Of a DNA stretch of 64,000 bases, positions 35,148 through 63,523 are shown piece after piece. The translations under genes were made by a program, and so were the position numbers. The DNA comes from Neophaeotheca triangularis (lineage: Eukaryota). Under the pieces are notes generated by a model. The model was given only the letters and a program-made list of their open reading frames with translations, was not told the origin of the DNA and ran no database searches. The stretch's first letter is position 1; each line of letters starts with the position of its first letter. Where the stretch lies: the NCBI GenBank assembly GCA_054600435.1, contig BAAIJX010000013.1, forward strand, positions 372,001 through 436,000, given 5' to 3'.

Positions 35148-36284
35148 TTATACAAACGACCTCAAGAATTCAGCCAACAGCAGCATGCCCATCGCTTGCC
35201 CATACGGCATTGCAGTTCGACTTATGTTGTAATAATGTTGAAGGTCGCTTCCCATGCCAGTGCCGAAGCTGACGTCCTGCAGCTCACCCTTGTCATCGAT
35301 CCTCGTCACGACTGCATTCAAAGCCTTCATCGCCACGTCCTTATATTCCTTGCCGATATACCTTTTCCTCTCAGCCTTGAGGATACCGTAAGCGAATCCA
35401 GCTGTAGCTGAGGACTCTATGTAGCTGCCCTCGCTATCTGGCTTGTCAAGGATCGTCCTCCAGCTTCCGTCAGGGGTTTGTAGGCGTTTGAGAGCTGCAC
35501 ATTGTGCCTCGAGGGTATCGATGAGGTGGAGTCTCAGCGCATCATTTGGTGGCAAGTTCAGCAGCTCAATGAAGTCAGGAATTACAATCGTCAACCACGC
35601 ATTGCCTCTCCCCCAGCGAGCACGGGCGAAGTTGTGGCCGACACCTCCTTCAGCGCTCTCATCAAACTTCCAGCCGTGGAAGAATAGTCCTGTCTTCGCG
35701 TCGAAGAGATACTTGATATGCAGCATGAATTGGCGTTTCGCCTCCTCGACGTAGTGCGGCCGGTCAAGCAAGAGCCCGATCTTCGCCAGCGGCATGACAG
35801 TCATCATCAGTGTGTCGTCCCAGAGCTCGTTGTGGTTGGTTTCCAGATAGGTCATATGCTGCATCCCGCCAAATCGCGTACGGGGCAAATCATGCATGAC
35901 CCATTCAGCCCACGAATCGAGCCAAGGCAGCCAAGTAGGGTTTCGATCGCTCTCGTAGAGATATGCCAGCGTGAGGAAAGGCGACATGGTGTTGATGTTC
36001 TTGGTGGTGCCTTCGCTCAAGCGGCCAGAGAACCAGTCTAGCATTACTTGCTTTGCGCTTTCGCTGCCGGTCAGGGTGTGGTATTGGTAGAGGCCGTAAA
36101 GGCCAATTCCGTGGGTCCATTCCCAGTCGTTCCAGCCTTTGGTGTCAATTACTCGGCCGTCTGGAAGGCGGAGGAGAAATTCGCCCGTTGTGTCTTTGAT
36201 ATTAACAAGGTTTTGAGTAAGAAGATCGATTTTGGAGCGAATCTCGGCGGCTGAGTAGCCGGCAACTTGCAGTGCTGTAGGCAT
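35148..36284 (-). CDS. GH105 unsaturated rhamnogalacturonyl hydrolase (YteR-like), no signal peptide
   Basis: WEWTHGIGLYG, ELWDDTLMM, HNFARARWGRGNAW, ESSATAGFAYG, PYGQA motifs of the GH105/GH88 (alpha/alpha)6 barrel. Confidence 0.9.
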   Translation of the reverse strand: MPTALQVAGYSAAEIRSKIDLLTQNLVNIKDTTGEFLLRLPDGRVIDTKGWNDWEWTHGIGLYGLYQYHTLTGSESAKQVMLDWFSGRLSEGTTKNINTMSPFLTLAYLYESDRNPTWLPWLDSWAEWVMHDLPRTRFGGMQHMTYLETNHNELWDDTLMMTVMPLAKIGLLLDRPHYVEEAKRQFMLHIKYLFDAKTGLFFHGWKFDESAEGGVGHNFARARWGRGNAWLTIVIPDFIELLNLPPNDALRLHLIDTLEAQCAALKRLQTPDGSWRTILDKPDSEGSYIESSATAGFAYGILKAERKRYIGKEYKDVAMKALNAVVTRIDDKGELQDVSFGTGMGSDLQHYYNISRTAMPYGQAMGMLLLAEFLRSFV

Positions 36285-36508
36285 GGTGGGAGTTTGCTGT
36301 AGATTCGGAGCCCTGCGGTTTGAGTTCGTAGCGTGGCTTATCCCGTGCGAAATCCCGGAAAGTCGATTTCTGCTCTACCGGCGAGATCCTACCTCAAGTA
36401 GTAGCTATGAGATCTGCTCTCTGAGGCTCGTGAATCGTAGCTTGACAACGTGGCCAATATCCCTTACTCGCGATAACAGTGGAGCTCGCCTAGGCCCACA
36501 ATTGTGCT

Positions 36509-37039
36509 CGGGATGCCGTTGTCCGTCTGAAAACGGATGCGACCGGGTCGTGTATTATTGAATGATCCCTTGCGGTCCGGATGGGAAGGTTCCTCCAGGT
36601 TTCGCGTCGAACTGAGTTTCTTGATCTGGTCTATGCCCGCCTGATCTTGTGAGGAGCAAGTAACCTTGGAAGATATTGAGGCGTTTGTTCGAGGAATATC
36701 GTCCCATTTTATTGACAGCCCAATGCATGCCAACTCTCGGCGTGTACGCATCTATGCCATGGGACAAGACTTGCTTCGGGGTGACGCTGTCCGAGTACGC
36801 AGACCGAACGAATCATGCGTTGTGTACGGAAAAGATGGAGTGTCGTCTCCCGGGCCGCCAAGGATTACGAGACTTTTCGGGGTTTCGGGATAAATGTCCC
36901 CGCCGCATGGAGAACCCCAAACCTTCACCCACGTTCTCCGCAAGAAGCTTTGAATCAAGACCCACCAAGGACCCGCCCAGGGCAAGTTTTCAGCCTTTGA
37001 AAACGATGCTGGGGCTCTTGGTATTGACATTCCTCCAAT
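36509..37039. promoter_or_regulatory. Divergent GH105/MFS promoter with three CGG-N11-CCG sites and GARE motifs
   Basis: CGG-N11-CCG at 36509-36525, 36777-36793 and 36886-36902. CCNCCAA at 36855 and 36962; TCCTCCAAT at 37031-37039. Confidence 0.65.
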
Positions 37040-37353
37040 GTAATGAGAGGACGTCCGGTACGGTACCCAGGGCTTGATAAGCAAGCGAACTGCTTGCACC
37101 GTGCTTGACGTGCTTCCTCGCTTCGCTCTCCAAAAGATCCTCCGACAGAGGCTCAACGTGAATAGTTGCAGGAGTCCGTGACGTTGGCCTATTTCGTACA
37201 ATTCTAGTTGAGATAGAAATCACCGTGGTCTCCCTTTCTTCTGTCGTTCCGTTTCTCCTTTCGTCTTTTATAACGACTCTCAGTCAGTCAATTCCTTTTC
37301 GTTCCCGGCATCACCTTTGGATCAAGCACTCCTTGCAGCGATTCAACTTCAAC

Positions 37354-39583
37354 ATGGCCAACAATGCAGACATGCCCGATGTCGTACCGGCGCCGGGAAA
37401 CCCCAACCCTATGCTGGGCGAGAAGACAGATCTAGCACAAGTCGAGAGGGCCTTTTCGGAAGACGACATCCAGAAAAACCATGCAGACCACGATCGAATG
37501 GACGCGGAAGTCGCCAAGTATACAACTGGCGAGCGCGTCTATGTCGACGAGCATGAGAACAAGAGGTTGAAGAAGATGATCGACAAGAGGGTTCTTTGTA
37601 TGCTGCCGACGTAAAAGGAGGGAGGCCAGAATTTGGAACATCTTCCCGGCTAACTTGACTCCAGCTATTATGATTGTCACCTATTTCCTCCAGGCGATAG
37701 ACAAGGGCACCATCAGCTTTGCCTCAATCATGTTAGTTTACTACCCTGTTGTCTTCGCCGCCAAGGGCGCGGACCATACGATCTGAATTTGGCTGACATC
37801 TTCTCTTAGGGGAATCCAAGAAGGTTCGACCTACCACAACGCCTTGTATCGGCCTATACTGACCTCCTCGTAGATCTGGACATGGAGACAGACAAGAACG
37901 ACCGCTACACATGGCTCACAACGTCCATCTACATCGCCATCATCTTTGTAGAGTACCCTATCAACTGGAGTAAGCGTCTCCACTTGCACGGCCGGGTAAC
38001 GATCCGTGATTGACCTCCAAACAGCGATTCAAAGGGTACCGATTGGAAAATTTCTCGGCACCAGCATCATGAGTGAGCCCTACATCGCCACAGCTGGCCA
38101 AGAAACGCGTGCTGACAGATAACTCAGTTTGGGGCACCGTTCTGGCTTGTCACGCCGCCTCGACAAACTTCACGCAGATCTTGGGTAAGGAGTGTTCATG
38201 CAAGTAATTTCGGTGCTTCCGGCTGACCCTGCGCAGTCTGCCGTATTCTTCTGGGGATCTTTGAGGCCGTTTGCCAGCCTACTAACCTCCTATTGAGCTC
38301 CATGTGGTTTAAGCGCGAAGAACAGGCTGCAACTGTCACGTACTGGTACATGATGAAGCAAGTGATCCCTGCCGCCCCTTTATAACGTCCAACCACTAAT
38401 CGTCGAACAGCGGCGCTCAACAGATCGTCGGTGGTTTGCTCGCGTATTGTTTCTCCTTGATTCCACGAGGAGGGGCATTGAACTCATGGCAGGCGATCGT
38501 TCGTTCTACCTCAATCTTGACTTCTCTGGGCTATCCTAACGTTTAAACAGTTCGTGGCTTACGGCGCGGCCTCTGTGCTGTGGGGCCTGTTCGTCTTTAT
38601 CTACCTACCAGACTCGCCCATGCGAGCTAAGGTACGTTCGCCGGGAAATGCGAGAACCAAGCACAAAGCTGAAACTACCCCAGTGCTTCTCCGAAGACGA
38701 TAAGCGCAAGATGGTCGAGCGTGTCCGCTCCAACGAAACTGGCCTCCAAAACAAGAAATGGCGTAAGGATCAATTTATCGAAGTCTTCAAGGACCCCCAA
38801 GTCTACGGCTTCTGCTTGATACAGATTTGCACCACTCTGCCAACCTCTGGTCTCGGCGCTTTTGCAAACATCATCATCTCAGGCTTTGGCTTCTCCGTGT
38901 TGGAAACCCAGCTTCTTGCAATGGTCCTTGGCGCATACATTATGGCTGTGCTCCTGGGATCGAACTGGCTTGTCACCAAATACAAGCAGAACCTAATCAT
39001 CTGCGCCTGCTTTGTCATCCCGTGAGTTCGTCCCGAACCCCTGAAAGCTCGGACCAAAAATTAACAAACGACTTTTAGCTCCGTTGTGGGCACCGTGGTC
39101 CTAATGACCGTCGAGAACACCAGCACGGCTACCTCAGCAGGCCTCTTAATCTCTTACTACCTAACTCTCTCCTTCTGGGCTGGTTCGTTTCTTTGCCGGG
39201 GTTGTAAGAAAGCTGAAGCTGACTTTTTCATAGCACAAACCATGGGAATGTCCCTGATCTCGCGAAACGTAGGCGGATCGACCAAGAAAGGCTTTGTTAT
39301 GACCATTAACTTCTGCTGCTGGGCCGCGGGCAACGCTGTCGGGCCCCAAGTCTTCAGAAGCGAAGACAACCCTCGCTACTTCCCGGCTTTTGCTACCCAC
39401 ATGGCCTGCTACGCTGTGCTGTTCTGTGCGCTGGCTTTCATGCGCTGGCACTACATCCACAGCAACAAAAAGAAGGACCGCCTGGCCGAGAGTGGCATGA
39501 ACCAGGCGAAAGACGAGGCACACACGCATGCTTTTGACGACTTGACGGATATGCAGAACCCCAACTTCCGATACGTGTACTGA
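37354..39583 (+). CDS. MFS transporter, Dal5/allantoate-permease (anion:cation symporter) family, 11 introns
   Basis: The spliced product has KMIDKRVL..FLQAIDKGTISFASIMGI, WFKREEQ, MMNGAQQIVGGLLAY, LPDSPMRAK, GNAVGPQ and FDDLTDMQNPNFRYVY*. Confidence 0.9.
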
Positions 39584-41222
39584 TCGGACGAGATGGACGG
39601 CTTGGGTAGCAAGGGAAAGCAGGAGAATTCAGCATAGACTCGATACATACGGCTGTATAGCGACGATAGAGTATACTACCTTCCACACCCATATTCTTGA
39701 AGATCTTGTTTGAGGTGAAGTTGTATGTCACGTGCCCGGTTTGGCTTGGCACATGCACCGACCTCCTTTTGTTTCCAACTCCGATATAGGATTTCACGCA
39801 TCACATCGATACATCCCCTAAGTTCCGACTAGTCTTCTCATATTCGTTGAGTATATGCAAAGCATTCGGCCTTGTCCTCACTGGACACCGCTTGCGCAAG
39901 CTCCCGACGGCTACAAGCCAACTCTTCGAAGTGACGCGGCGGAGTGAAGAGAGCCATTACTCTGATCTGGGGACCACTAACCAAGGCTGAGGCCCGCCTT
40001 AACATTGCACAGCATCCACCGAGAGCCTGATGGCCATCTCCTCGAGATTGAAACAAAAAGCTCTCGGCGGCCGAATCACCCTTGGGACCTGGACTCACTG
40101 CTCCAGTTTTTTTGACCAGACCAAGAAGATCAGCCAACCCGACACTCGATGCCAACGTCATCAAAACAACGCAATGTCGTTGCCGAGGATGCTAGGCCGT
40201 CCGGTGAGCCTCCTTCAGATCTGCCAGAATACACCGTCATCGGTTTTGGAGAATCACGGCATCAACACTATGGGCACTACCGCGACGACCTTTCGTAAAG
40301 ATGTTCTTGCGGCAAATGCTACAGGGGCTCGCAAACTCACCGCACAGTGGTAGTGGACGGACGAGAACGGCGACATCACGACCGAGATTCCCGATACCTA
40401 GAACGACAAGATCTATCCCGCCCTCGTCCGCGCAAACTACATAAATTTTTCGACCAACCTCTCCTACCGTATTAGCTTACTTGCTACTTACGGACTCTTC
40501 CTCCTCGAGCATTGTAGGAAGAGTTGCAAGTGCGATTGCGGCATCGGCACCGGTCCACTTAAGAAGCCATCCGATTTCGACGTGGAGGAGAGGAAGAAGT
40601 AGGGATTCAACCTTCTCGGTCTTGCGCTTATTAGGGCTCGTCTCTAGCGCCTAAGGGATCAATTTTCGAGGTAGACTCTTAGGACCCCTCGTCTGACAAC
40701 CTTCAAGAAGAGAGTGACGGAAGGTTCAAGGATTTCGACGACGTTGATCACGCATGAAGTGGAGTACCGGCCTTTGTGGAGGACTATGCTGGTGTTCATC
40801 AGCTCACCCCTGGCGTCCTCCGGCGAGGCAAGTGAGTCTGAAGTGCTATCGTCATGGCCTACAAAATGCGAAGCAAGGTCGTATTGCCGATAGTGAGGAT
40901 GATTGCTGATAGGCGAGTTTAATGCGTTCCACTTGCCAGGGACACAGTCGAAAGCCAACTATCTTCCAGCACGCTTCCCCTGGCGTTTTCAATCTCGCCG
41001 AGTAGCTCAGCCACTCATACTCAGCAATTTGGCGACACGCCGAACTTGCCTACGATAGGATACAGGGTAACATGAACATCTAGCAAATGCGCCGAGAGAC
41101 CAGGTGCCACAACCTCAACGGATTGCCAATGTCTTGCTCATGGTCATATCCGGAAGCAGTCAACTTCTTCAAATATTTTGCTAGGTTTCAACAGTAACGG
41201 ACCAACAAGCTCGGCGTCAACA

Positions 41223-43314
41223 CTACTCAATCTCCATGCGCAAGGCATCGTACTGCACATAAGTCGAACTAGGCAGCAACGCAGGCTCATAGTTTGTCGC
41301 ATTGTACGGCAAACTGAGAATCAACTCGTTCTTCCCGGCGCGCAAGAACTCGGCGTCGAAGACGAACTTATGCGCCAAGTTGTAGCAAATTACGGCCGAG
41401 CGAACAGCGCAGGAGCTGCTCTGGTCGTACCTGGAATCGCCACTTGTTAGCCAGGACACGATGTGAAAAACCAAGGACGAAAACTCACGGGATGATCCAA
41501 GGCTCCAGCTCTTGGCCATTAACCGCGACGGTGTAGTTCAAGTTGGCATGAGGTTCCGACGCATTGAAGATGTCCGTGTTCCCGGCGGCAGTCTTCGCGC
41601 CCGCCAACTGCACCGTCAGCGTCGCTTGCGTCTTCTTGTGCAAAGCGTGCTTCTCGACGTCAAACAGCACGGTCCAGTTGTTGATGTTGCCGTCGCCCTC
41701 GACCTGCTCCTCGCGCTCCGAGTTGGCACGTCCGCCGAAGACGCTCCAGTGCACGTAGTTGAAGTCTTCGACTTCCTTGCTCTCGCCGACGCGGAAAGTC
41801 ACGCCCTCGGGGAAGTCGTCGAGGTAGTCCCAATTGGCCCAGTAAATGCGGTATTGCTCGGGCTCGGTTGGGAATGACAAGTCCCGTTCGTAGCCGTGCT
41901 TGTACTCGCCACCGCTCTTATCGGGAGTGCCGATGCGCCAGAGCTCCTTCCCGGCGGACTCCTCGCGCCAGTGGACACGGGTCTTGGTGTGCTTTCCGGC
42001 GCGGATGACGATGTCGTCTTGTTCGTACTGGCCGAAGATGCCGTCGGCGTAGACGGTTAAGCGGTAGGTGCCGGCGATGACACGAGGGATCTCGACGTGG
42101 CCGGTCTTGGGGTCGATCTCGGCCCAGTACTGGTAGGCGTCCGTGTCCATGTTGTCTTGGAAGTCGATGTCGTTCTGAGCGAGCACTGCGAGCGGCCTCT
42201 TAGCACCGTGGGGGAGCTTGACTTTGGCGTTGAAGGTTCCTCGGCCGCCGGTCTTGACGTAGTTTGGCACGAAATCGGCGATGTCGTCGTAGAATTGGGC
42301 GTTCAGCGTCGGGTCGGCGTATTTAGCGGCGTCGTTGCGCAGTTCTTGAAGTGACGTCCCGGCGGGTGCTTTGTTGAAGTAGTAGTAGAAGGGGCCGAAC
42401 GTACGATCGAAGCCATCGGTGATGTTCGGCGTTTGCTTGCCGTGGTGGTTGGACGAGATATAATTGTAGAGGATGCCGTCGACGGTGAGATCAGATGCCA
42501 GGGGACCGCCGTAGTAAGTATCCTTGGTGTTCATGACAAACCAAGCTCCAAAGGCTGATCCGTCATCGCTAGTGGAGCCGTTGGAGTAGAGGCCGTAGGC
42601 GTCGATATCTCTCCAGTCATCTTGGAAGGTGTACTTGGTGTAGAAGGAGGATTCCGCGTTCAGGTAGGGATCTGCCGACCTGTTTCGCAGGTCCCAGGTT
42701 GCGTCTTGTACAGTGGTAAGGTCCGAGGCGTCGCCACTGGCCGCCGGATTGGGGTTGGGCAGGGGCGCATATTGGATCTCGTTGGTCGCCAGGTCCGTCC
42801 ACAGCGGCGTTTGCGGTCTGAAGAGCGTACGAAGCTCCTGGAGGTTACGCAAAAAAGGCTCCGTCTCGTTGTAGTAAAAGACTCTGGAGAAAGTGTGCAA
42901 GCCCGTCTCGGACTCCCTCAAAAACCAGTACTGTTCGAGAGACTGGTTCGTGGACGGGTAAGTCTCACCCATGACAATGCCAGCCCAGTCGACTCCGTCG
43001 GAATCAGTGCCTTGGTGAAGCATGTATCTCGAGTCCCCGGAGCCCGGCGTCCAGAAACCCTCGGGCGTGCAGTAGCAGTCGAGGTAGGGACCGGTGCCAG
43101 CGTAGCCATTGCGCTCGCCAAGCAGATCCTGTGAATCGAGCCGGAGCTGGTCGATGGTTCCGGAGCTCTTGTTCACGGAAGCGTGAAGACGGTCATTGGC
43201 AACTGTGATGCGGCCATCCGTCTCTTCTGCCGTCAAAGCCCCCAATACTGGCCTCGAAGAAGCAAGAAAACCCAAGGCCAACGCTTTGAGATTGAAGGGA
43301 TTCGTCGACGACAT
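41223..43314 (-). CDS. Secreted rhamnogalacturonan endolyase, PL4 (RglB/C-like)
   Basis: Signal peptide; GPYLDC, LQELRTLFRP, TVQDATW, YISSNHHG, WRIGTPDKS, YVQYDALRME. Intron 41431-41488. Confidence 0.92.
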
Positions 43315-43463
43315 GACTGTTACTCCTACCTTCGAGGACAATTCGTCAAGTATACTAAAATCCAATCACTTGACATGGCGGGCGAGACCATTTTATCTAA
43401 CTCTCAAGACTCATCAATATTGCCAGGAAGCTACTGACGCTCTCCGCACGCAATACAGGATCT

Positions 43464-43480
43464 CGGTATGTTTTACACCG
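43464..43480. promoter_or_regulatory. CGG-N11-CCG site upstream of the PL4 lyase
   Basis: CGGTATGTTTTACACCG, 150 bp upstream of ATG 43314. Confidence 0.55.
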
Positions 43481-45021
43481 GGATATGTATGAAGATCTTG
43501 GCATGATGGAGGTCAAGGGCGAGATATGCAGGTGATATATACTAGTAGCCAGGCGTGAGGGGAATGCGGAGAAGGGGATACATACGGCCCGTGCATGCCT
43601 ATAGAACATACCTGTACTCGGTCTGTGACGCTGTCTGTAAGTCGTGAGCGCGCGGCGAAAGAGAGTAGAGCACTCATTGACACTACCTAAGTTTCTACTG
43701 AGCTGATCGATCTCGGCGCGAACTATAGGTGCCTGACAAGCCCGTGCGGCGCTCGCTGCTCGGTATTGTATACGACGTGTCGGCAAACAGTGCACCCTGA
43801 CCGCCTCAATAATGGAAGACTTTGCTTTTCTCGCCCGGGACAGTGAGACCAAGGCGGCCGTCTCGTCAGCGTTCACAAAGGCTAGGTTTTCACCACGTGA
43901 CTACGCGACTCAGAAGAGTTATTACCTTTACACAAAGTACCTACATGGTATTGTACATCTACTATTTGTTTGATTTTCAGGTGCGCTGGAGAAACAGGTC
44001 TACTCGATTCGGGCTGCGACATCAGTCGACGCAACAGAATACCAATGCCGTAGATGGCGAGAAGCTAAGGTACGGATGCGAAGTGTAATATGTCTAGACT
44101 GTCCAGTGTCCAAGGGGCGTCCATTCCTCCCAAACAATGGAACCAAACCACAATCTGTACGTACCCCCACGCACCACTCCCAGCTCTTTAGGAGGTTGCA
44201 ACCCAAACCGCCGGGAATACCTCAGCGATGATCTGATCCGACATGGGCAAATAATTGGAACGCAGTCGAGTAAAATGAGCTGTTGTTTACGCCAATCCAT
44301 TCTGGACCGCATTTCACAATTCGCAATTTAGGTACTTTATTAGAAAAGTCTTCACCTCACTAACAACATACCTTGGATCCTCCCACACAATACAAATAAC
44401 CTACCATAAAAGCGTTGTTGTGTTATCTACTACGCTCCTTCGCACGAAGCCAAGCTTTCCCTCTAGACCTCCCCCGACTCTGGCGTTTCTTACAGCCTTT
44501 CAAGCCACCCGACTTAAGCCATCTCACGATTCACGTTTTGGAATTCAAAGCCCTACGACGCGGATACTGATAGTGTGGCAGTGTGGCAGTGCTGTCGTGT
44601 TCGACTAGCTTACCGCGCATATTACTGACGACTCGCTCCTTCTCGAATTCGGTTGCCTGGGTTGTTGACGGCGGTTTAGTATAACTACTAGCCAGACTGT
44701 CCGCGCCTTTCGACTATTCAACTCGTTCGCTTTTGATCGGCTATACGCATTCCTTGTAGCGACGACTCTGAATACTGAATATTCTTTGGATCAACGAGAG
44801 CCGACGAGCAGCTGTAATTAAAAGAGAAACTCTCAACGGGCCAGTTTAATCTGCCACCTCTCGCTTTATTCCTAGGCGCCGACTCCAAGCAAGAGACACC
44901 CAGGCAGCCAATTACCACTATTGGGCAAAACCACGGCGGGCATCACCACGACCGCCGCCGGCAAACTCCCAGCCCCCAAACTCACTCCCACCGCGCCACC
45001 GCGCGCGAAATCCCCGGAAGA

Positions 45022-49713: not shown

Positions 49714-50031
49714 TTAGGAGATGGCGCGTGAAACGAAGAAAGAATTCGCATTATCGTCTGGAATCGTGAAGCAGATGTCCGTCGATGTCGTGTAGATCTG
49801 ATCTTGACAGTTGCTGTCGGAGTAAACGGTCATGGTCTGGCCAGCGGTGAAATCTGCCATGATCATAGATCGTGCCTGCTGCAACTCGGAGATGTCTTTG
49901 CAGTTTTGGAAAAATGGAATGTCGTATGAGTAGAGTCTCTCGCCGTGGCAACCTTCGGAAATGTAACCATCGACATTTACAGCGGCGGCAGCTTGCAGCA
50001 GTGTAGCTGCGATGGCGGCGGTAAAGAGCAT
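49714..50031 (-). CDS. Small secreted 4-Cys protein (105 aa), single beta/gamma-crystallin-like domain
   Basis: Signal MLFTAAIAATLLQAAAA; two Y-x4-C..S Greek-key-like halves; homologous to the N-terminus of the 51658 gene. Confidence 0.82.
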   Translation of the reverse strand: MLFTAAIAATLLQAAAAVNVDGYISEGCHGERLYSYDIPFFQNCKDISELQQARSMIMADFTAGQTMTVYSDSNCQDQIYTTSTDICFTIPDDNANSFFVSRAIS

Positions 50032-51657
50032 CGTTGTGGGTTTGGGCGAAGACTGAAAGATGTTGGAAAAGTGGTAGTTTGCTGTGTTTCCAAGTCGGTG
50101 GATGGAGCTTAGGGTCGTGGTGAGCGTGGTGGTACTGCGTTTCGAAGACATCAATCTTATAATGCAGTAACTCGCGGGATCAGCCAAGGACCAGCAAGCT
50201 ATGAAAGGAGTACATACGTCCGCGGAGAAGATTGAAGGAGTATTGATCCACTCCACCGCTGCGACCTGCGACACAAGCAACTGTACGCCGTTTAAGACGT
50301 CGTGATGAACTTAAATCACCCGCATCCCCCGGGCAAACGAGGAATGCAATTAACACTGCTATGGAACAGCGTGGAGCATGGCTGCATGAATGGCACCCTG
50401 TTAAACAAGGGTTGCTGTCGATCCATCCGCTCAAGTCGAATATGGGGCTTTCCTGCACGTGCTTAACATCATGCTGAGCTATCAGACCTCAGAGACGACA
50501 AATTATACGTCGTGCCAACGCAGATGCAAGCATCTTAAGGCAGGCGCTTGGTGAAGCTTATACAGAATCTATCGAAGCCACGAGGAAGGATTCTTAGTTT
50601 ACAATCAGAGTTATGCCCCTCCCACGTCCCCGAAACAAAGTGGTGGGGTTGACGGGGCATGTCAATGGAAGTAGACTTTTTGCTAAGCCCATTCTGGGCT
50701 AACGCTTAACACCACGACGTGAGGATTCATCAATACTCCCGAGTCCTTCGTCGACTTGCGTGCAGCTCGCGTAAAAGCGATCACATTATTCCATTGCAGT
50801 AGCGGTCGACTAGCTAAATCCAACCAGATAGTTCGATCTTCGCCGTCACGAGAAGGGAGGCGTATGACTTGATAGCACGTCTTGGTTGAATTTTTACTAC
50901 TGCAACTCCTACGAGACTATTACGTCCATCGTCGGTCAACGACTCTCATGCCTTGTACTCCTTTCTTTTGTCCAACGGAGCGGAATGCAACATGGCTCCG
51001 GCTCTGATTAAGCACATTTACAGCAATACCCATACCGCAAATGCGTCGAATCGTTAGGAGCCTCACTTTGCGGTAGCCAGACTAGCACTCGGCCTGCTTT
51101 GTCACTTCAAACCAGGCTCTCAACTTCCACTGGCCTCAACATTATGGTCGACTCGAGACCACCAGTATCACCACGTGCAGGACCTACTCCAAACGTTAAG
51201 ATGCCCGTGGTACTCTCGTTTCAATTCTAATGGTAAAGCTCCACTGTTTTCTCCGTCGACTTGATGGTGGTGAACTCTCAAGGGCAACCGACATATCGCT
51301 TTGGCCAATAGCCTCGCCTCATCCAGTCGGCAAACAATGCTGCTTATAATCAGGTCTGAATACTGACTTGATGATCTTGCCCTTTCCAAGATTATGTTGG
51401 AGCTGTGGGAGGATGCAGATGCAGTATTGGCCTGTTCGAACCTTACGTTAGGATTCCGCTTTTTCCGCTCTTCGGTTTCGATCATCAATACACAGGCGGC
51501 GGGTGAGACCAAAACTATTAAAGGAGACGTCGAGCCTCAAAGAAATTACGACTCTTCACGCATACTCAGATCATTGTCTCGCAAAGGCAAACCCGGCCTC
51601 AGCAAAGCTCCAACGTACCAAGCATATTGTCGCATTCCCCATTGCCAACCTCTCAAG

Positions 51658-53001
51658 ATGGCAGTATCATGGCGCTCTCTAGCGGTCTTGTTTTTGCCTG
51701 TCGCCAGCTGCGTTAATGTCACCTTCTACGATGGCAACAATTGCTCCGGCTATCGTCTATATGGCGGTTCAATCGACAAAGCATTGCCTTGCTACGATCT
51801 TTCCGACTATGCAGTCTCGAACTCCAGCTCTCTCGAGAACCTTGCACCCGGCCAGGTGGTACACTTTTACTCCGACGCAGCGTGCGAGAATGAGGTTTAC
51901 AAGGCCGAGCAGGAGGTCTGCCACGTTCACACCCGTTTCGACGTAGCATCGTTCAAGATCGCCATGTCCGAGCCCACCGGCCCAGAGGCTGATGGTAGAA
52001 TCGCTGTAACGACTACCGACCTTGCCGTCTACAAGATGGACACCTACGAGGGCGAAGGGACCGTGGCACCTGTTGTGCGCATCCCTTTGTCCACTTACTT
52101 TTTTGCTTACTACGGGCTTGAAGTCCTGACGGGTGCGGTCACTCTGTACAGTGTTGCTTCCACTTGCTACGGAGCCAGATTTGGAGACCCAAAGTCCATC
52201 TTCGACTGCATCGTCTCCCCCGTCTCCACAGTCCTGGCCTACTTTCTCGGCAAAAGGTTACAAAACAACATCCAGGTCCAAACTCGCGGCCGCCTGGACG
52301 CAGCGCAAGGCACCGTCACCAACGTCAAGCGAGGCCTTTTAGAAGAAGCCGCAGACCACGAATACCTCACGGCCTTCCTCAATGGCACCGACACTACGCC
52401 CCGGCACGTAGGCTACACGACCCACGACCTCGGCAACGGCGAGCAAACGTCCCCCGTCTACGAATTCGCCAACCTCGGCACCGGCGAGCCCATGCACATG
52501 GCCGCTTTCTGGCACGCCGGCAGCGAAAGCTACGTGCACCGCATGTACCACCCGCACGCGGCCGAGGCGGAGGAGGCTGCGAAGGACGAGCTCAGCAAAC
52601 GCCAGGGCCCCGGGTACCTCTCGCTCCGCTACAACAGCGGCGGGCTGGAATTCCAGGCTTGCAACTACAACACCGCGGCCGACCGGAGCGTGTTCCAGGG
52701 CCTCGGCATCAACGACCACTACAGCAAGATCTACGAGGATTTGACGTGCCTGTTCGATCCCACGAGCTACCAGGACGATGCCGGCTTCTATTTTGACGTG
52801 TAAGTCTTCTACTTGTTCCCTTCGTGTGGGAACTTTGTCGTCATGGCGCCGGTTACTGACGTGCTTATCCCTCGCAGTTACAATGGCCAACGCAACGTCG
52901 TGTCCGGGATCAAGATAAGGGCTTTCGATGACAACAGGGGCGGTATCGCGAACCTCAACTGCGATTTTCCTACGTCGCAGAACCAGCAATGTCTCAACTG
53001 A
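51658..53001 (+). CDS. Secreted Kex2-processed preproprotein (421 aa), putative K1-like killer toxin with N-terminal crystallin-like domain
   Basis: Signal peptide, 4-Cys domain, hydrophobic hairpin around CYGARFGDPKSIFDC, KR sites at 52327 and 52597, Cys-containing C-terminal chain. Intron 52800-52877. Confidence 0.75.
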
Positions 53002-55611: not shown

Positions 55612-56890
55612 ATGGCAGAGAAAGGTTCTGCTTTTGACACTCCATGGTTCAACAGTCAGGACAAGAGCTTCTTCAACTCGTTGAACAAGACCAAGATTCC
55701 CCATGTCATCCTCACCGCTGAGACCGAAGACTTCGCCGACGAGGTAACACAGCAATGGATCACCGAAGGCTTTCACACTCAATATGTCGCCTTGCTCAAC
55801 GGCGGTAGTGATTACATCAAGCGTGTTCATGCAGTGGGCGAAAGCTTCGGGCCTAGCGAGCAATATGCCATCGTAGGTAAACGAGACGACTCATCCCCAA
55901 CCACAAGCTCGCAATCAAACTAATACCTCGCCAGCCTTCGGTGACGCTGCCACCTTGATCCTCCAATCCCACACCAAACCCAACAATCCCAAACTGTGCG
56001 CAATAGTAGCCTACTACCCCTCCGCCATCCCCGACCCGCACAAGACGCACTACCCACCCTCAGTGCAAGTGCTCGTTCACCTAGCTGGCACGGAAATCGA
56101 CGTCCACCGCAACCCAGAAGTCCTGGGGATTCAAGGCAAGACCAAGACGGTGCGCAAACGCGTGGGCGGCGGCGCCGGTCTCAGCGGCACCATCAATCTC
56201 AGCTTCAAGACTTACGCTTACCAAGGCTGCGAATCTGGGTTCGCCGAGCACGATCTGGACGAGTTCAATGCCGTCGCTGAGAGCTTGGCTTTCGGGCGGA
56301 GTTTGCAGACGGTGAGGAAAGGGTTTCGGCTGGAAGCTGCCGATGGGATCGAGGCGGTTAGAGACCGTCTAGTGGATAGCACGGCTTCGAGGGACGTGAA
56401 GACGAGCGTCAAGTCTTTGCATGAGTTTGCTCACGTGGTGAATGGGCCTGTTTTGACTGGGGGTGTGGGTGCGCAGCAGTTGCAGCGGTTTTATGCCGAG
56501 TTTTTTGCTCCGCTGCCGCCGACGTATACTGTGCAGCTGCTCAGTAGGACTGTGGGCACGGATAGGGTGGTTGATGAGATGTTTGTGAATTTCACGCATT
56601 CGCAGCCAATTCAGTGGATGCTACCGGGGGTTCCGGCGACGAATCGCAGGGTCGAGGTGATTGTAGTGAGCATTGTCTGTGTGGGGGGAGGCAAATTGGA
56701 GAGCGAGCATGTTTACTGGGATCAGGCGAGTGTGCTTGTGCAGGTTGGGCTGTTGGATCCGAAGCTTGCCGTACCAGAGGCGATGAAAGGCAAGGGCGTT
56801 AATGCTCTACCTGTGCAGGGAGCGGAGGCGGCACGGGCAGTGAAGAGGGGTAGCAGTAAGATGTTGAACAAGAACATGCCTGGGTGGTGA
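55612..56890 (+). CDS. Dienelactone-hydrolase-like / SnoaL(NTF2)-like fusion protein
   Basis: YAIV|AFGDAA, AIVAYYP, GFAEHDL, SRTVGTDRVVDE..FTHSQ..WMLPGVPAT..EHVYWDQASVLVQVGLL. Intron 55877-55934. Confidence 0.82.
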
Positions 56891-57621
56891 GCATGGAAAG
56901 GGCTGCTGCATCCAACTGCATCAGAAAGCCATGTCGGAGCGGACGTCCATACCTAGGGGGTAGCTTGCTTGAATGGATGGAAGCCATCTAAAACCACATG
57001 TCCGCACTACCCGTTGAAGTACTTCGGGAACCTTCAAGATGAAGCTCAATGTTGGCTTCGCTCTGAAACGAAACATGGCGTTTTCCCTTCCCTTCTTGAC
57101 ATTATTATTCTCGTTGTACACACGTTCGAGACTCCGTCAGACGTCTCGATACGCGTTGAAGAGACTCGACTGGACTCGACGACATGTGACATCCGCAATG
57201 TATCCTTTCGAACCTACATTCCCTATTTGGCCTCTTGACCCCCGAGGCCGCAGACTCCCGCATTGCACGCAAAAGGTTATACGTTAAAGCTCTCCGAAAA
57301 GGTATCTGACATCCCCGGACTGCTCACTGGCCCCTCACTGGCCCTCCCCGGCATCGGGCAGTTTAGGGTTGTCGGGGTACATATAGATATAGGAGGACCC
57401 TGTTGCGCCCGATGCTTGGATCGAAGCAAGGTGGGGGCCATCTCGACATTTTTGGGCACCGAGTCATTAATAAGGTCGGTCGGGTACTTGGGTTGTTACT
57501 TTTTCCTGCTTGCTCGATAAATACAGTCCACCTTCACTTCCTTTTCCTACCCTTTCCAAACACATACCAACTCTCTTTCACACACACACACACATTCCTA
57601 CACACAACGATAATCGACACC

Positions 57622-59106
57622 ATGGCCACCAACGGAGACGTTCAGACCAACGGGGTCAACGGTGTCAATGGCACCCACCCCTCCTCCACCTATGCCCTCG
57701 GCCAATCACACCAAGACCTCATGGAGAAGAGCCTGGTAGACACAGACCCGGAGATTGCTGAGATCATGCGCAAAGAGGTGAAGCGTCAACGCGAATCCAT
57801 CCTCCTCATCGCCTCCGAGAACGTTACCTCCAGGGCTGTTTTCGACGCTCTAGGCTCGCCCATGAGCAACAAATACAGTGAGGGATACCCTGGCGCCAGA
57901 TACTACGGCGGTAACGAGCACATCGACGAGATCGAAATCACATGCCAGCAAAGAGCATTGCAGACTTTCGGTCTCGACAGCGAGAGATGGGGTGTCAACG
58001 TCCAATGCTTGTCAGGGTCGCCTGCCAACCTCCAAGTTTACCAAGCCATTATGCGTCCCCACGAGCGCATCATGGGTCTCGACTTGCCTCACGGTGGTCA
58101 CTTGTCCCACGGCTACCAAACCCCGACCAAGAAAATCAGCGCCGTCAGCACCTACTTCGAAACCTTCCCCTACCGCGTAAACCTCGAAACCGGCCTGATC
58201 GACTACGACCAGCTCGAGCAAAACGCCATGATGTACCGCCCCAAAGTCATCGTCGCTGGTACCTCTGCCTACTGCCGCACCATCGACTACGCGCGCATGC
58301 GCGAGATCGCAGACAAGGTCGGCTGCTACCTCATGGTAGACATGGCCCACATCTCCGGCCTGGTCGCCGCGCGCGTCAACGCCAACCCCTTCGAACACGC
58401 CGACATCGTCACAACCACGACGCACAAATCCCTCCGCGGCCCCCGCGGCGCCATGATCTTCTTCCGCCGCGGCGTCCGCAAGACGGAAATGAAAGCCGGC
58501 AAAGAAGTGCAAACCCTCTACGATCTTGAAGGCCCTATTAACTTCTCCGTCTTCCCGGGCCACCAAGGCGGCCCTCACAACCACACCATCACCGCGCTCG
58601 CCGTCGCTCTCAAGCAAGCCCAGAGCAAAGACTTCCTTGCTTACCAAGAGCAAGTCATCAAAAACGCCAAACAGCTCGAACACAGCTTCAAATCGCGCGG
58701 TTACAAGCTCGTCACCGACGGCACCGACAACCACATGGTGCTTCTCGACCTCAAGCCCCTCTCCCTCGACGGCGCTCGTGTCGAAGCCGTTCTCGAGCAA
58801 GTCAACATCGCTTGCAACAAGAACACCACCCCCGGCGACAAGTCGGCGCTCACACCTTGCGGTATCCGTATCGGCGCGCCCGCTATGACGAGCAGAGGCA
58901 TGGGCGAGCAGGATTTCGACCGCATCGTCGGGTACATTGACCGCTGCATCCAGCTCGTCAAGAGCATCCAGGCGGACCTCCCCAAGGAGGCCAACAAGCA
59001 GAAGGATTTCAAGGCCAAGGTCGCCGGTGGCGGTGGTATCAAGGAGATTGCTCAGCTCAAGAGCGAGATTGCCGAGTGGGCTGTCACTTTCCCTCTGCCG
59101 GTCTAA
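57622..59106 (+). CDS. SHM2: Serine hydroxymethyltransferase, cytosolic type
   Basis: [44 protein letters not shown] (PLP Lys), QGGPHNH. No mitochondrial presequence evident. Confidence 0.95.
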
Positions 59107-60966: not shown

Positions 60967-62586
60967 CTACTCCCCAGGCATCCCCCTCCTCAAATTCTCA
61001 AACCGACTCCCAGGATACTCCAGACAATTCCACTGCACCTCCAACCTCTTCCCCCCGTACCCACCCATTTCTTGCGAGACGAGGTTGATAACACTCTGAC
61101 TCGAGTTTCCGGCAAAATCGCCGCTGGTCTCCCACCACATTGCGCCGCCTAATTTGTTCTGCTCAATGTACGCGACCTTCTTGGCGGCGACTTCGAGAGA
61201 GTCGTAGGAGATCATGGTTTTGGTGGTCGGGTTGTAGAGGTAGGAGGCTACGGCTTCGGGGTCGTAGTGGGATTCGAAACCTGGGAGGGGGAGGGCCTGG
61301 GAAGAGGGGTGGGTTAGTTTGGTGGGGTTGGAGAAAGGGGGGGAGGAAGGATTCAGGTGGGTTGTGGAGGAAGTGGTGGAGTGTCAGATTAGATCAAGTT
61401 TATTTTCCACGCCCATTGCTGTCGGTCTTCGCCACTCGCCGGAACCACGTGGTGGGTTGGGTGCGAGAGCTGTAATCAATGGAAGAGAGAGCTCGGCGTT
61501 TTGCTCTATCATCATGCTGTGGTGCGAGGGGAAAGAGAAAAGACTGCGAACTCAACGTACCTTGTAGTCCCAGACACCATTTTCCCAACTGCCGCCTCCA
61601 ACACCATTGTACGGGTGTCCAGGCCCATCAGTCTGCGTAAACGCACGTCCATAGAGTGGCATACCCAGCACGATCTTCGGAGACCTCACGCCATTCTTGA
61701 CGTACCAGTGGATGGCACTGTGGGTATCAAAAGGCGTGCTGGTAGGGTTCGACCGACTTTTGTAGAGGTTTGCTTGGTGGCCAGCTGTCGCGTCCCAAGA
61801 GCCGGCAAAATCGTAAGCCATCATGTTCCAGAAGTCGAGGTACGCGTCCATTTCCTTAAGACGCAACCAACGACTGTTCGAAGGACCGGCAGGACACGCA
61901 ATGGTCAAAAGGAAGTGGGGTCGAGAAGGAAGCGTCGCGGAATAGGCTTCCAGTTCATGTCGGGTGGCGGCGAGTAGCTTGACGTAGTCATTGGCCTCTG
62001 CGTCGTTCTTCGGGTACTCCCAATCAACGTCCAGACCATCGAAGCCATAGTCTTTGAGCAACTTGACAGCGCTGAAGGCGAAATTCTTGCGGCCTTGCTT
62101 TGTGGAAGCCGGTTGCGGGAAGTTCGAGCTGTAGGTCCAGCCACCGATACTGAGCAAAGTCTTGAAGTTGCGATTCCTCTTCTTGTGGAGGTACATTTGC
62201 TTGAGAGAGCCGTAGAGATTCTCGCCGACATCATTCCACGAGTCTCCTTCGTAATGCTTCTGTTCGTCCGACCATGAGTCCGTCAAATACACTTCACCGG
62301 ACTCGGGACGGATGTTGGCGAAGGAGTACAACACGTGCGTGAGTTTGTCCGCTGGGACATCCTGAGGTTGATGATTGCGGCCGTAAATTGCCCAATTGAC
62401 ATAATAGGCTACCGAGCGGTAGCCCTCTTGGTTGGACATGGTTGTGGCTGCCTCTGCCGGGTTCGTAGCGTACTCGTTATTGCCAGTCGACCGTGGGATT
62501 GCTTTGTGTCGAAGGTCTCGCGCTGAGGCATAGTTAGGGGAGAGAGCAAACGCAGCAAGAAGACAATGCACCACCCATCTGGCCAT
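60967..62586 (-). CDS. Secreted GH18 chitinase (class V / subgroup A)
   Basis: Signal peptide; [45 protein letters not shown]. Intron 61297-61560. Confidence 0.95.
61380..61519 (-). ncRNA. Intronic box C/D guide RNA targeting U2 snRNA (G25)
   Basis: In the 264-nt chitinase intron: C box ATGATGA (61515-61509) and D box CTGA (61387-61384), preceded by ACTTGATCTAA, which is complementary to fungal U2 UUAGAUCAAGU. Confidence 0.75.
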
Positions 62587-63523
62587 GGTGTCAGTGCACG
62601 TTTGCGCCTTTTTTTATATTGCTGTAGGAGTCAATGCTCGTAGGGGGGGAGTCTTGAGTCTTTGTTGTCCGACCTGACGTGGCTTTGGGGGCATATGACA
62701 CTTTAAACGTCCATGAACGTGTTGTGACTATAGGAGAGCGCAGGAAAGACATGTGGAAGAGAGAGTCGTTTATATACCTTACCAAAAGAGGTCCAGATGG
62801 GCACCGAAAAGGTTCCAGGCCGAGTTACTCACGCGTTTGGCCTCTTGGTGCCGCACAGGAATGTGCAACTGAGACACAGGTCGGATGGCAAGCGTCCACG
62901 AATCGGCCGGTCGTGACAAGCTGAGAATCTTCTCAAAGGGGCCGAAGACGTGAGGGGGCCCTCAACAGTCAATGATCTGGTGTCGAAAAGTCGGGATACC
63001 GATTATGGTCGGGCGGCGGAGGATCTCGTCGGTGAAGACGTGTGGACACGCTGCAGTTTACCTGATCACCTCACGCTTGATGCCGGGGATGATGAAGCTG
63101 ACAAAGGCAGGGCAGGGTGGGGGCCAGACATACCCGACATACCCGATATATATATCCGATGCGCTCGTGCGAGGAGGGACCGGACGAGATTGGATGATGG
63201 ACAGCCACTCGCTTTGTTGCAAAGTGAGCACCAACCTGGAACTTGAAACTTCACCAGACGAAGTCATTCGGGCGCCGCATACAGAAGCTTGCAGAGGGGC
63301 CGTTCCGAACCTTAAAGAAGATATGTACGCACGCCCAAGCGTTTGGGGCCGTCCCCAAAAGGAAGGTAGGTGGCCTCAGAAGCTGGCTCAAACAACGCCC
63401 AAGACAAGACAACCACTCATACACACCACCTAACATGTCCCTACAAATGACCCTCCGCCTCGTGACAATCCTCGCCTTCACCACCGGAGAATTTCGGTCC
63501 CCCGAGCGCCGCAGCTCCGACCC

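Follow-up and report, generated by a model that had tools for sequence, protein, structure and literature searches.

In a 64-kb window of the 25.4-Mb Neophaeotheca triangularis assembly (contig BAAIJX010000013.1, positions 372,001 to 436,000; coordinates below are those of the window), positions 35148–43314 are occupied by three intact genes, encoding a glycoside hydrolase of family 105 (GH105), a Dal5/ACS-type transporter from the major facilitator superfamily (MFS) and a polysaccharide lyase of family 4 (PL4). The MFS and GH105 genes probably form an ancient, RhaR/PDR-1-controlled unit that imports and finishes the products of rhamnogalacturonan I (RG-I) lyases, which PL4 joined in this lineage. 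The original prediction for this DNA, made from the sequence alone, had described a GH105 gene without signal peptide adjacent to a divergent Dal5-family MFS gene and a secreted PL4; gene models, Pfam and PDB matches, presumed transcript contigs and a hydropathy proxy confirmed all three. The features of the locus are as follows:

36284..35148, minus strand: GH105, single exon, 378 aa
36285..37353: divergent GH105–MFS spacer, 1,069 bp
37354..39583, plus strand: MFS transporter, Dal5/ACS family, 535 aa, 12 exons and 11 introns
37354-37597, 37665-37731, 37810-37823, 37874-37969, 38025-38072, 38128-38184, 38237-38357, 38411-38498, 38551-38631, 38684-39021, 39079-39182, 39234-39583, plus strand: MFS exons
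43314..41223, minus strand: PL4, 677 aa, one intron (41431-41488)

Evidence for splicing came from contigs of three public runs (X1–X3) of one study, taken to be RNA and mostly 95–99% alike. As these contigs bridge all 11 MFS introns as well as the PL4 intron, the gene models hold. Ten joints span the MFS introns, those of introns 2 and 3 being merged into a single joint that encloses letters of a 14-nt micro-exon (37810–37823), and one intron is of the GC-AG type (38358–38410); by comparison, the orthologue in metagenome locus L007 apparently has a single intron. The spacers of the three genes were devoid of contig cover, save that contigs on the GH105 side extend to 36597–36598. Four short non-canonical joints were set aside as likely stemming from other organisms.

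GH105 matched Pfam PF07470 (E 5e-91), and its best PDB matches were the solved GH105 proteins 4xuv (E 3e-160), 3qwt and 3pmm (down to E 7e-149). Its WxDxxxM motif (W156-D157-D158..M162; WDDTLMM), common to YteR-like enzymes, was invariant in 30 of 30 aligned rows and aligned with the same motif of 4wu0; the catalytic Asp within it presumably corresponds to Asp143 of YteR. Enzymes of this family remove the unsaturated galacturonic acid (GalA) end left by PL4. Signal peptides were judged solely by a hydropathy proxy (N-terminal maximum; threshold 2.0), by which GH105 reached 0.99, the threshold being attained by 8 of the 120 GH105 homologues listed. By this measure the protein lacks an N-terminal hydrophobic stretch and would fit a cytosolic enzyme; Neurospora crassa GH105-1 is described as intracellular (PMC5469009). 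From its gene context, the window enzyme is predicted to be a RhiN-like unsaturated rhamnogalacturonyl hydrolase: it is 59–63% identical to proteobacterial relatives in rhamnose or RG-I loci, which lie next to GPH or TRAP transporters. Several of these loci also hold rhamnose genes and those for PL26, KduI, KdgR and oligogalacturonate lyase, a setting matching the one reported for RhiN (PMC3870299), and enterobacterial-type GH105s (60–62% identical) sit behind an MFS_2 gene. In a quick tree, fungal GH105 rows formed one clade (support 99) amid proteobacterial rows; since a single, very long branch determines the root, which is therefore unreliable, acquisition from bacteria is only a lead.

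Three bacterial loci (L026, L077 and L123) share the order DUF1961, PL26 (labelled merely hypothetical in L123), GH105, MFS and oligogalacturonate lyase, and DUF1961 may belong to RG-I use. The N. triangularis genome also encodes a second GH105/GH88 protein (L120:3951-5147, contig C107), 26% identical to the clustered one, with a signal-like N-terminus and no upstream motif, representing a distinct, secreted type.

Profile and fold searches for the transporter were run on orthologues, namely the intron-poor P0243 of L007 and P0272 of Elasticomyces, the latter 62% identical to the window protein. Both sequence-profile and fold searches returned DgoT, sialin and VGLUT2 as the nearest solved proteins, which places the MFS protein among carriers of the anion:cation symporter (ACS) family (TC 2.A.1.14), or Dal5 type. 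Its best model was TIGR00893, with scores of 198–204, below the cut-off of 395. The original prediction had proposed a rhamnogalacturonide importer behind what would normally be labelled an allantoate permease, and the transporter class is compatible with this proposal in that the best PDB match is a sugar-acid symporter, the D-galactonate carrier DgoT. Names given by the sources conflict (allantoate permease, THI73-like, nicotinic acid transporter), the ESM Atlas returned solely generic MFS or 'allantoate permease' clusters, and no characterised member of the clade was found among the names returned. To judge from sequence comparison, this clade is a distinct orthologous group: the window protein is 56–66% identical to the 120 orthologues listed and ~22–33% identical, over the main segments, to Dal5-like paralogues of its own genome, and residues Q189, Q219/Q220, T322/T323, W418 and W449, kept in 119–120 of the 120 listed orthologues, mostly differ in the paralogues.

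PL4 matched Pfam PF14686 and PF14683, with PL4 domains II and III present, and its homologues are named rhamnogalacturonate lyase B or C by the sources. Cleavage by PL4 enzymes leaves a 4,5-unsaturated GalA end on the RG-I pieces. Neither the single sequence nor a profile (up to E 1) matched any PDB chain. A structural model of the first exon only (mean predicted local distance difference test score, pLDDT, 76.5) best matched 1nkg, the RG lyase of Aspergillus aculeatus (Foldseek E 5e-20; Z 30.2, rmsd 3.9, 421 aligned), in agreement with a predicted three-domain RG-lyase fold. K227 and H290 were invariant in 51 rows and, to go by their similar spacing, may correspond to the catalytic Lys and His of the A. 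aculeatus enzyme (K150 and H210, taken from PDB titles). The N-terminal hydropathy maximum was 2.04, which by the same proxy indicates a hydrophobic N-terminal stretch, the threshold being reached by 85 of the 120 PL4 homologues listed. The window lyase is the sole match of its type in the genome; in a quick tree it lay nearest to those of Hortaea, Elasticomyces and Teratosphaeria, albeit without strong support, and cluster-linked lyases were spread over several branches.

The linkage was then assessed in other genomes. A fungal GH105 alignment was used to retrieve 80 metagenome loci, of which 22 were counted as fungal-type (L003–L023 and L034), and all 10 of those placed in the tree fell within the fungal GH105 clade. 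In 16 of the 22, an MFS gene lay head-to-head with GH105; five of the six loci without an MFS match hold at most 1.3 kb of upstream DNA. Because L007 and L008 look like duplicates and L014–L017 are 80–93% alike, these correspond to about 12 independent cases. A tblastn search with the fungal MFS gave no match in the other 58 loci, including the GPH and TRAP transporters there. The remaining neighbours varied between loci, except for Hsp90, found downstream of GH105 in three of them (L009, L020 and L021), and for the common surroundings in L015 and L016.

Species comparisons were drawn from lists of the top 120 homologues, in which consecutive gene numbers imply adjacency and give no orientation. 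GH105 and MFS were numbered consecutively in Aspergillus terreus (ATEG_07906/07907) and, among the matches listed, in Exophiala bonariae, Orbilia ellipsospora, Dactylellina haptotyla, Patellaria atrata and Sphaceloma murrayae. All three genes were consecutive in four species:

Coniosporium apollinis: W97_06832/33/34
Elasticomyces elasticus: LTR10_009218/19/20
Zasmidium cellare: PRZ48_011693/94/95, in the same order as in the window
Elsinoe fawcettii: KAF4554947/48/49

MFS and PL4 were two numbers apart, with the middle gene unseen, in Teratosphaeria nubilosa, Phlyctema vagabunda, two Coleophoma species and a Xylogone; the two were consecutive in Aureobasidium pullulans, and PL4 and GH105 in Hortaea werneckii. 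The lyase is therewith linked in at least 11 species that we take to be Dothideomycetes and Leotiomycetes (class assignments here and below are our own), comprising the four full triples and seven in which PL4 lies no more than two numbers from MFS or GH105. The trio was seen in three or more different gene orders, which suggests that linkage has been selected for and that this is not a block merely frozen in place. The linkage exceeds chance, and its expected presence in other species is borne out by both the metagenome loci and the consecutive numbering. At the conserved core stands the pairing of GH105 with MFS; the lyase is a lineage-limited third member. Many H. werneckii records of ~1,000 aa (among them P0133 and P0233) that suggest a PL4–GH105 fusion were rejected as probably merged gene models, since other strains give separate products of 682 and 379 aa. 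The neighbours of A. niger urhgA were not found in the main texts or in the accessible supplements of PMC5674754 and PMC5161314, nor was ATEG_07906 in the part of the PMC7573219 supplement that was searched.

For regulation, we used the motif TCGG-N11-CCGA reported for PDR-1 (PMC5469009), fixed beforehand, before sites in the window spacer were counted. The following sites, given without strand, were located:

36508..36526: TCGG-N11-CCG, flanked on one side; lies within the GH105-side contig cover and may be 5′ leader
36776..36794: perfect TCGG-N11-CCGA palindrome, candidate RhaR/PDR-1 site
36885..36903: TCGG-N11-CCG, flanked on one side
43463..43481: TCGG-N11-CCG, flanked on one side, ~150 bp upstream of the PL4 start codon

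The GH105–MFS spacer thus carries three T-flanked sites, one of them perfect, whereas at least three were reached in just 1 of 5000 shuffles (mean 0.19). Only this T-flanked form, in this spacer, was above chance; bare CGG-N11-CCG occurred across the window at the expected frequency (20 seen vs. 20.5 expected). Against a genome background of 544 perfect sites per 25.4 Mb, 5 of 15 orthologous spacers contained one, compared to 0.25 expected from the genome rate; the spacer of L018, cut to 79 bp by the ends of the alignment, carries no information. In a spacing control over 16 spacers (N5 to N17), perfect sites numbered six at N11 and four at N10. Nine further promoters of the genome were also checked. 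Those of PL26 and of two GH78 genes contain a perfect site; those of two more GH78-type genes, of the rhamnonate dehydratase and a second dehydratase, of the secreted GH105 and of the nearest ACS paralogue do not.

In N. crassa, mfs-20 (NCU02653; listed as an 'allantoate permease') and gh105-1 (NCU02654) are among the 22 genes of the PDR-1 core regulon, and each has three sites (PMC5469009). In the same data, expression of NCU02653 (in fragments per kilobase per million mapped reads) was 10.6 without carbon, 0.34 on sucrose, 229.8 on L-rhamnose and 24.4 on pectin, and that of NCU02654 was 11.3, 0.43, 228.1 and 47.5, respectively; upon pdr-1 deletion, the L-rhamnose values were 13.9 and 11.0. 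L-rhamnose hence induces both genes about 20-fold via PDR-1, with near-identical profiles. The co-induction on pectin or rhamnose that the original prediction called for is therefore seen in the likely N. crassa orthologues of the pair. In Benz et al. (PMC3933009), the most pectin-specific cluster contained nine MFS genes, NCU02653 being one of them. In A. niger lacking RhaR, the GH105 gene urhgA was down 60-fold and the PL4 gene rglB 197-fold (PMC5674754).

Taken together, we propose the following route. Secreted PL4 would cut the RG-I backbone, generating 4,5-unsaturated GalA ends, as expected from family knowledge and the predicted fold. A secreted PL26 exo-lyase, encoded elsewhere in the genome, may then trim the pieces to the disaccharide of unsaturated GalA and rhamnose (ΔGalA-Rha). 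This is the product that PL26 enzymes release, in line with PDB titles; the single PL26 exo-RG lyase gene (L117:4024-7001, contig C12) encodes an N-terminal signal-like stretch, carries a perfect site at –334 and is the probable source of the disaccharide for the MFS transporter. The ACS-type carrier would import anionic ΔGalA-Rha, or a short oligomer, together with a proton, and cytosolic GH105 would, as known for its family, split ΔGalA-Rha into L-rhamnose and 4-deoxy-L-threo-5-hexosulose uronate. Rhamnose might finally enter the LRA pathway, an intermediate of which would induce RhaR and so feed forward on the spacer, by analogy to A. niger (PMC5674754). Overall, the MFS substrate is probably an unsaturated rhamnogalacturonide, likely ΔGalA-Rha; we prefer this disaccharide to long oligomers, given that small anions are what ACS carriers move and that the secreted PL26 has the same promoter motif. 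A KduI search of the genome returned no match, although the assembly may be incomplete, and an RhgB_N search was equally negative, as was its control search.

Several observations weigh against this proposal. As to regulation, all four N10 sites of the spacing control stem from L014–L017, a clade that has this spacing and not N11; the L004 spacer is without a site; the 500 bp upstream of the secreted GH105 and of two GH78-type genes are likewise devoid of one; and the spacer between the rhamnonate dehydratase and Zn2Cys6 genes holds a one-mismatch site at best. NCU02653 and NCU02654 are only likely orthologues of the window genes, judged by annotation and position. As to linkage, L011 is a true miss, with no MFS gene within 10 kb on either side of GH105. 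PL4 was detected in only one of the 80 metagenome loci (L010), using a query whose last 69 residues were out of frame, the preceding 608 being correct. In all nine Sordariomycetes whose accessions or locus tags were compared (two Dactylonectria, three Ilyonectria, Neonectria ditissima, Cylindrodendrum, Fusarium oligoseptatum and Chaetomium olivicolor), MFS and PL4 were far apart, and PL4 is likewise distant from MFS in Patellaria, A. terreus and N. crassa. We know of no ACS carrier of a disaccharide. Characterised members of the Dal5 subfamily mentioned in PMC2329640 carry allantoate and vitamins, and the N. crassa PL4 gene asd-1 is repressed, not activated, by PDR-1 (PMC5469009). The predicted cluster of lyase, importer and hydrolase accordingly stands as regards the conserved GH105–MFS pair, for which the earlier interpretation was largely right, and only partly as regards the lyase, which is lineage-limited and, in N. 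crassa, unlinked and oppositely regulated by PDR-1.

The main rival, on account of the missing KduI match and hence of any evident consumer of the uronate product, keeps the pathway and changes the cargo: the MFS transporter would carry a monomeric sugar acid, exporting or re-importing the keto-deoxy-uronate or importing L-rhamnonate or galacturonate, with the disaccharide entering by other means. DgoT and sialin, its nearest solved relatives, indeed carry single sugar acids, L-rhamnonate is unlikely to use RhtA (PMC5674754), and other ACS-type transporters of this genome adjoin enolase-family dehydratases and aldolases resembling dihydrodipicolinate synthase (DHDPS). Nevertheless, we consider this version unlikely, as the transporter is tied to the hydrolase and not to the rhamnonate dehydratase locus, and as a cytosolic GH105 requires a substrate importer, the very role assigned to the bacterial transporter adjoining RhiN.

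Whether the carrier has to do with pectin at all can also be questioned. An ordinary allantoate, dipeptide or vitamin permease, co-induced solely through the bidirectional promoter, would be in keeping with its source names, with the passive co-induction of head-to-head genes and with Benz et al. (PMC3933009) having set NCU02653 aside because it resembles non-sugar transporters. Yet the pairing is kept across at least four classes while other neighbours differ, the names are automatically transferred and mutually contradictory, and the clade, at ~22–33% identity to the genome's other Dal5-like proteins, has conserved residues of its own, rendering such a permease quite improbable. A galactoside-active hydrolase subfamily, the pair importing and finishing galactosylated RG-I fragments or another oligosaccharide, appears very improbable to us. 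RG-I does carry galactan side chains, the NCBIfam model NF051900 'beta-galactosidase BglB' scores GH105 at 432.7 vs. a cut-off of 420, which also counts against an RG-I hydrolase, and one Sphingobium locus has a beta-galactosidase adjoining GH105. However, bacterial relatives share their loci with rhamnose genes and with PL26, KduI, KdgR and oligogalacturonate lyase, and fungal ones with PL4, the WxDxxxM motif of YteR-like enzymes is kept, and a source for the BglB label was not found in our literature search.

If import of unsaturated rhamnogalacturonides by the MFS–GH105 pair is correct, it bears on a gap in the description of fungal pectin use, which is mostly portrayed as extracellular release of monosaccharides, even though fungi have intracellular GH105 enzymes. 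How substrate reaches these is left without explanation in the literature searched, and the module points to one particular carrier, which is conserved in both Neurospora and Aspergillus. Within that search, which covered mostly open-access texts and supplements in part, no paper gave this MFS a pectin-derived substrate or described the conserved pair or triple, while hydrolase–transporter pairs under RhaR are already known from fungi (rhtA–rhaB; PMC5674754). The candidate carrier had been dropped from a transporter screen owing to its label (PMC3933009). The fungal Dal5/ACS family would extend to oligosaccharides, the annotation of a large orthologous group would be corrected, and yeast engineering would gain a route to lyase-cleaved RG-I. 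More tentatively, and with slightly more doubt than conviction, the Pezizomycotina-wide 'allantoate permease' clade could represent the first importer in eukaryotes for unsaturated pectin oligosaccharides, in which a RhiN-type hydrolase from proteobacteria was combined with the fungi's own ACS carrier into a convergent selfish-uptake module that re-creates the bacterial RhiE–RhiT–RhiN strategy, the lyase being added by Dothideomycetes and Leotiomycetes.

Further RG-I and sugar-acid loci were noted in this genome. A GH78 alpha-L-rhamnosidase gene lies head-to-head with a sugar-porter gene (L111:2275-7335, contig C2), with a perfect TCGG-N11-CCGA 232 bp upstream of GH78, an arrangement resembling A. 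niger rhtA–rhaB; a second GH78 and sugar-porter pair (L118) has no perfect site within 500 bp upstream of the first ATG of the GH78 frame. ACS/MFS transporters accompany an enolase-family dehydratase and a DHDPS-like aldolase in L113:840-7885, which also holds a short-chain dehydrogenase/reductase, and in L116:1-8420, which also holds transcription factors, making both candidate fungal sugar-acid catabolic clusters. An L-rhamnonate dehydratase (L115:4188-8288, contig C72; NCBIfam NF011968, E 2e-106) is divergent from a Zn2Cys6 gene that is, by position only, a candidate for RhaR/PDR-1.

Within the window, the trio is flanked by unrelated housekeeping genes, which by their Pfam matches encode a PH/BAR protein and, at the opposite end, SYS1. 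Genes without a link to the cluster encode a SnoaL-like protein (55877-56890, plus strand), a serine hydroxymethyltransferase (57367-59106, plus strand) and a GH18 protein (61552-62613, minus strand). Two frames without Pfam match (49714-50310, minus strand, and 51367-52803, plus strand) look secreted, contain cysteines and share alike short N-terminal domains (Y..xxCxGxRLY).

Among known systems, the polysaccharide utilization loci (PULs) of Bacteroidetes share with the N. triangularis trio the logic of cutting outside, importing and finishing inside, as well as physical linkage and co-regulation. They differ in that the trio comprises three genes only, with the other RG-I enzymes scattered over the genome: PL26, GH78, GH28 and rhamnonate dehydratase all reside on contigs other than the cluster's. 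Neither a SusC/SusD-like pair nor a linked regulator was present among the genes flanking the trio. The label 'PUL-like' of the original prediction consequently survives as a loose analogy, and 'PUL' overstates a three-gene, lineage-limited cluster. At the protein level, the MFS clade keeps the Asp of transmembrane helix 1 (TM1) and the Arg and Glu of TM4 of E. coli DgoT, at ~16% identity; where DgoT has its TM1 Arg, a Lys is present here, which is uninformative on the substrate since several paralogues also have Lys. A. niger rhtA–rhaB, an L-rhamnose transporter gene with an alpha-L-rhamnosidase gene, is likewise a hydrolase–transporter pair under RhaR (PMC5674754), but combines a sugar-porter with a neutral monosaccharide, as opposed to an ACS carrier with a probable anionic disaccharide.

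The closest fungal counterpart is N. crassa mfs-20/gh105-1, an adjacent Dal5-type permease and intracellular GH105 with PDR-1 sites and parallel induction by L-rhamnose; there, asd-1 is unlinked and oppositely regulated, and the accessible part of the source gives no pectin-related substrate for mfs-20 and no comment on the adjacency (PMC5469009). The closest bacterial one is the RhiE–RhiT–RhiN system of the Dickeya (Erwinia chrysanthemi) RhaS regulon (described in PMC3870299, citing Hugouvieux-Cotte-Pattat 2004). The fungal module is not this system itself, because its transporter is of another family: those adjoining the bacterial GH105s compared are GPH (MFS_2) or TRAP proteins. The fungal genes are, in addition, separate, spliced and divergent, and their activator is a Zn2Cys6 protein. 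In its composition, however, the Dickeya system mirrors the one proposed here, with a secreted RG lyase, an importer of unsaturated rhamnogalacturonides, a cytoplasmic unsaturated galacturonyl hydrolase and a rhamnose-responsive activator, and the genes for RhiT and RhiN are neighbours, as are those for the fungal MFS and GH105 (PMC3870299).

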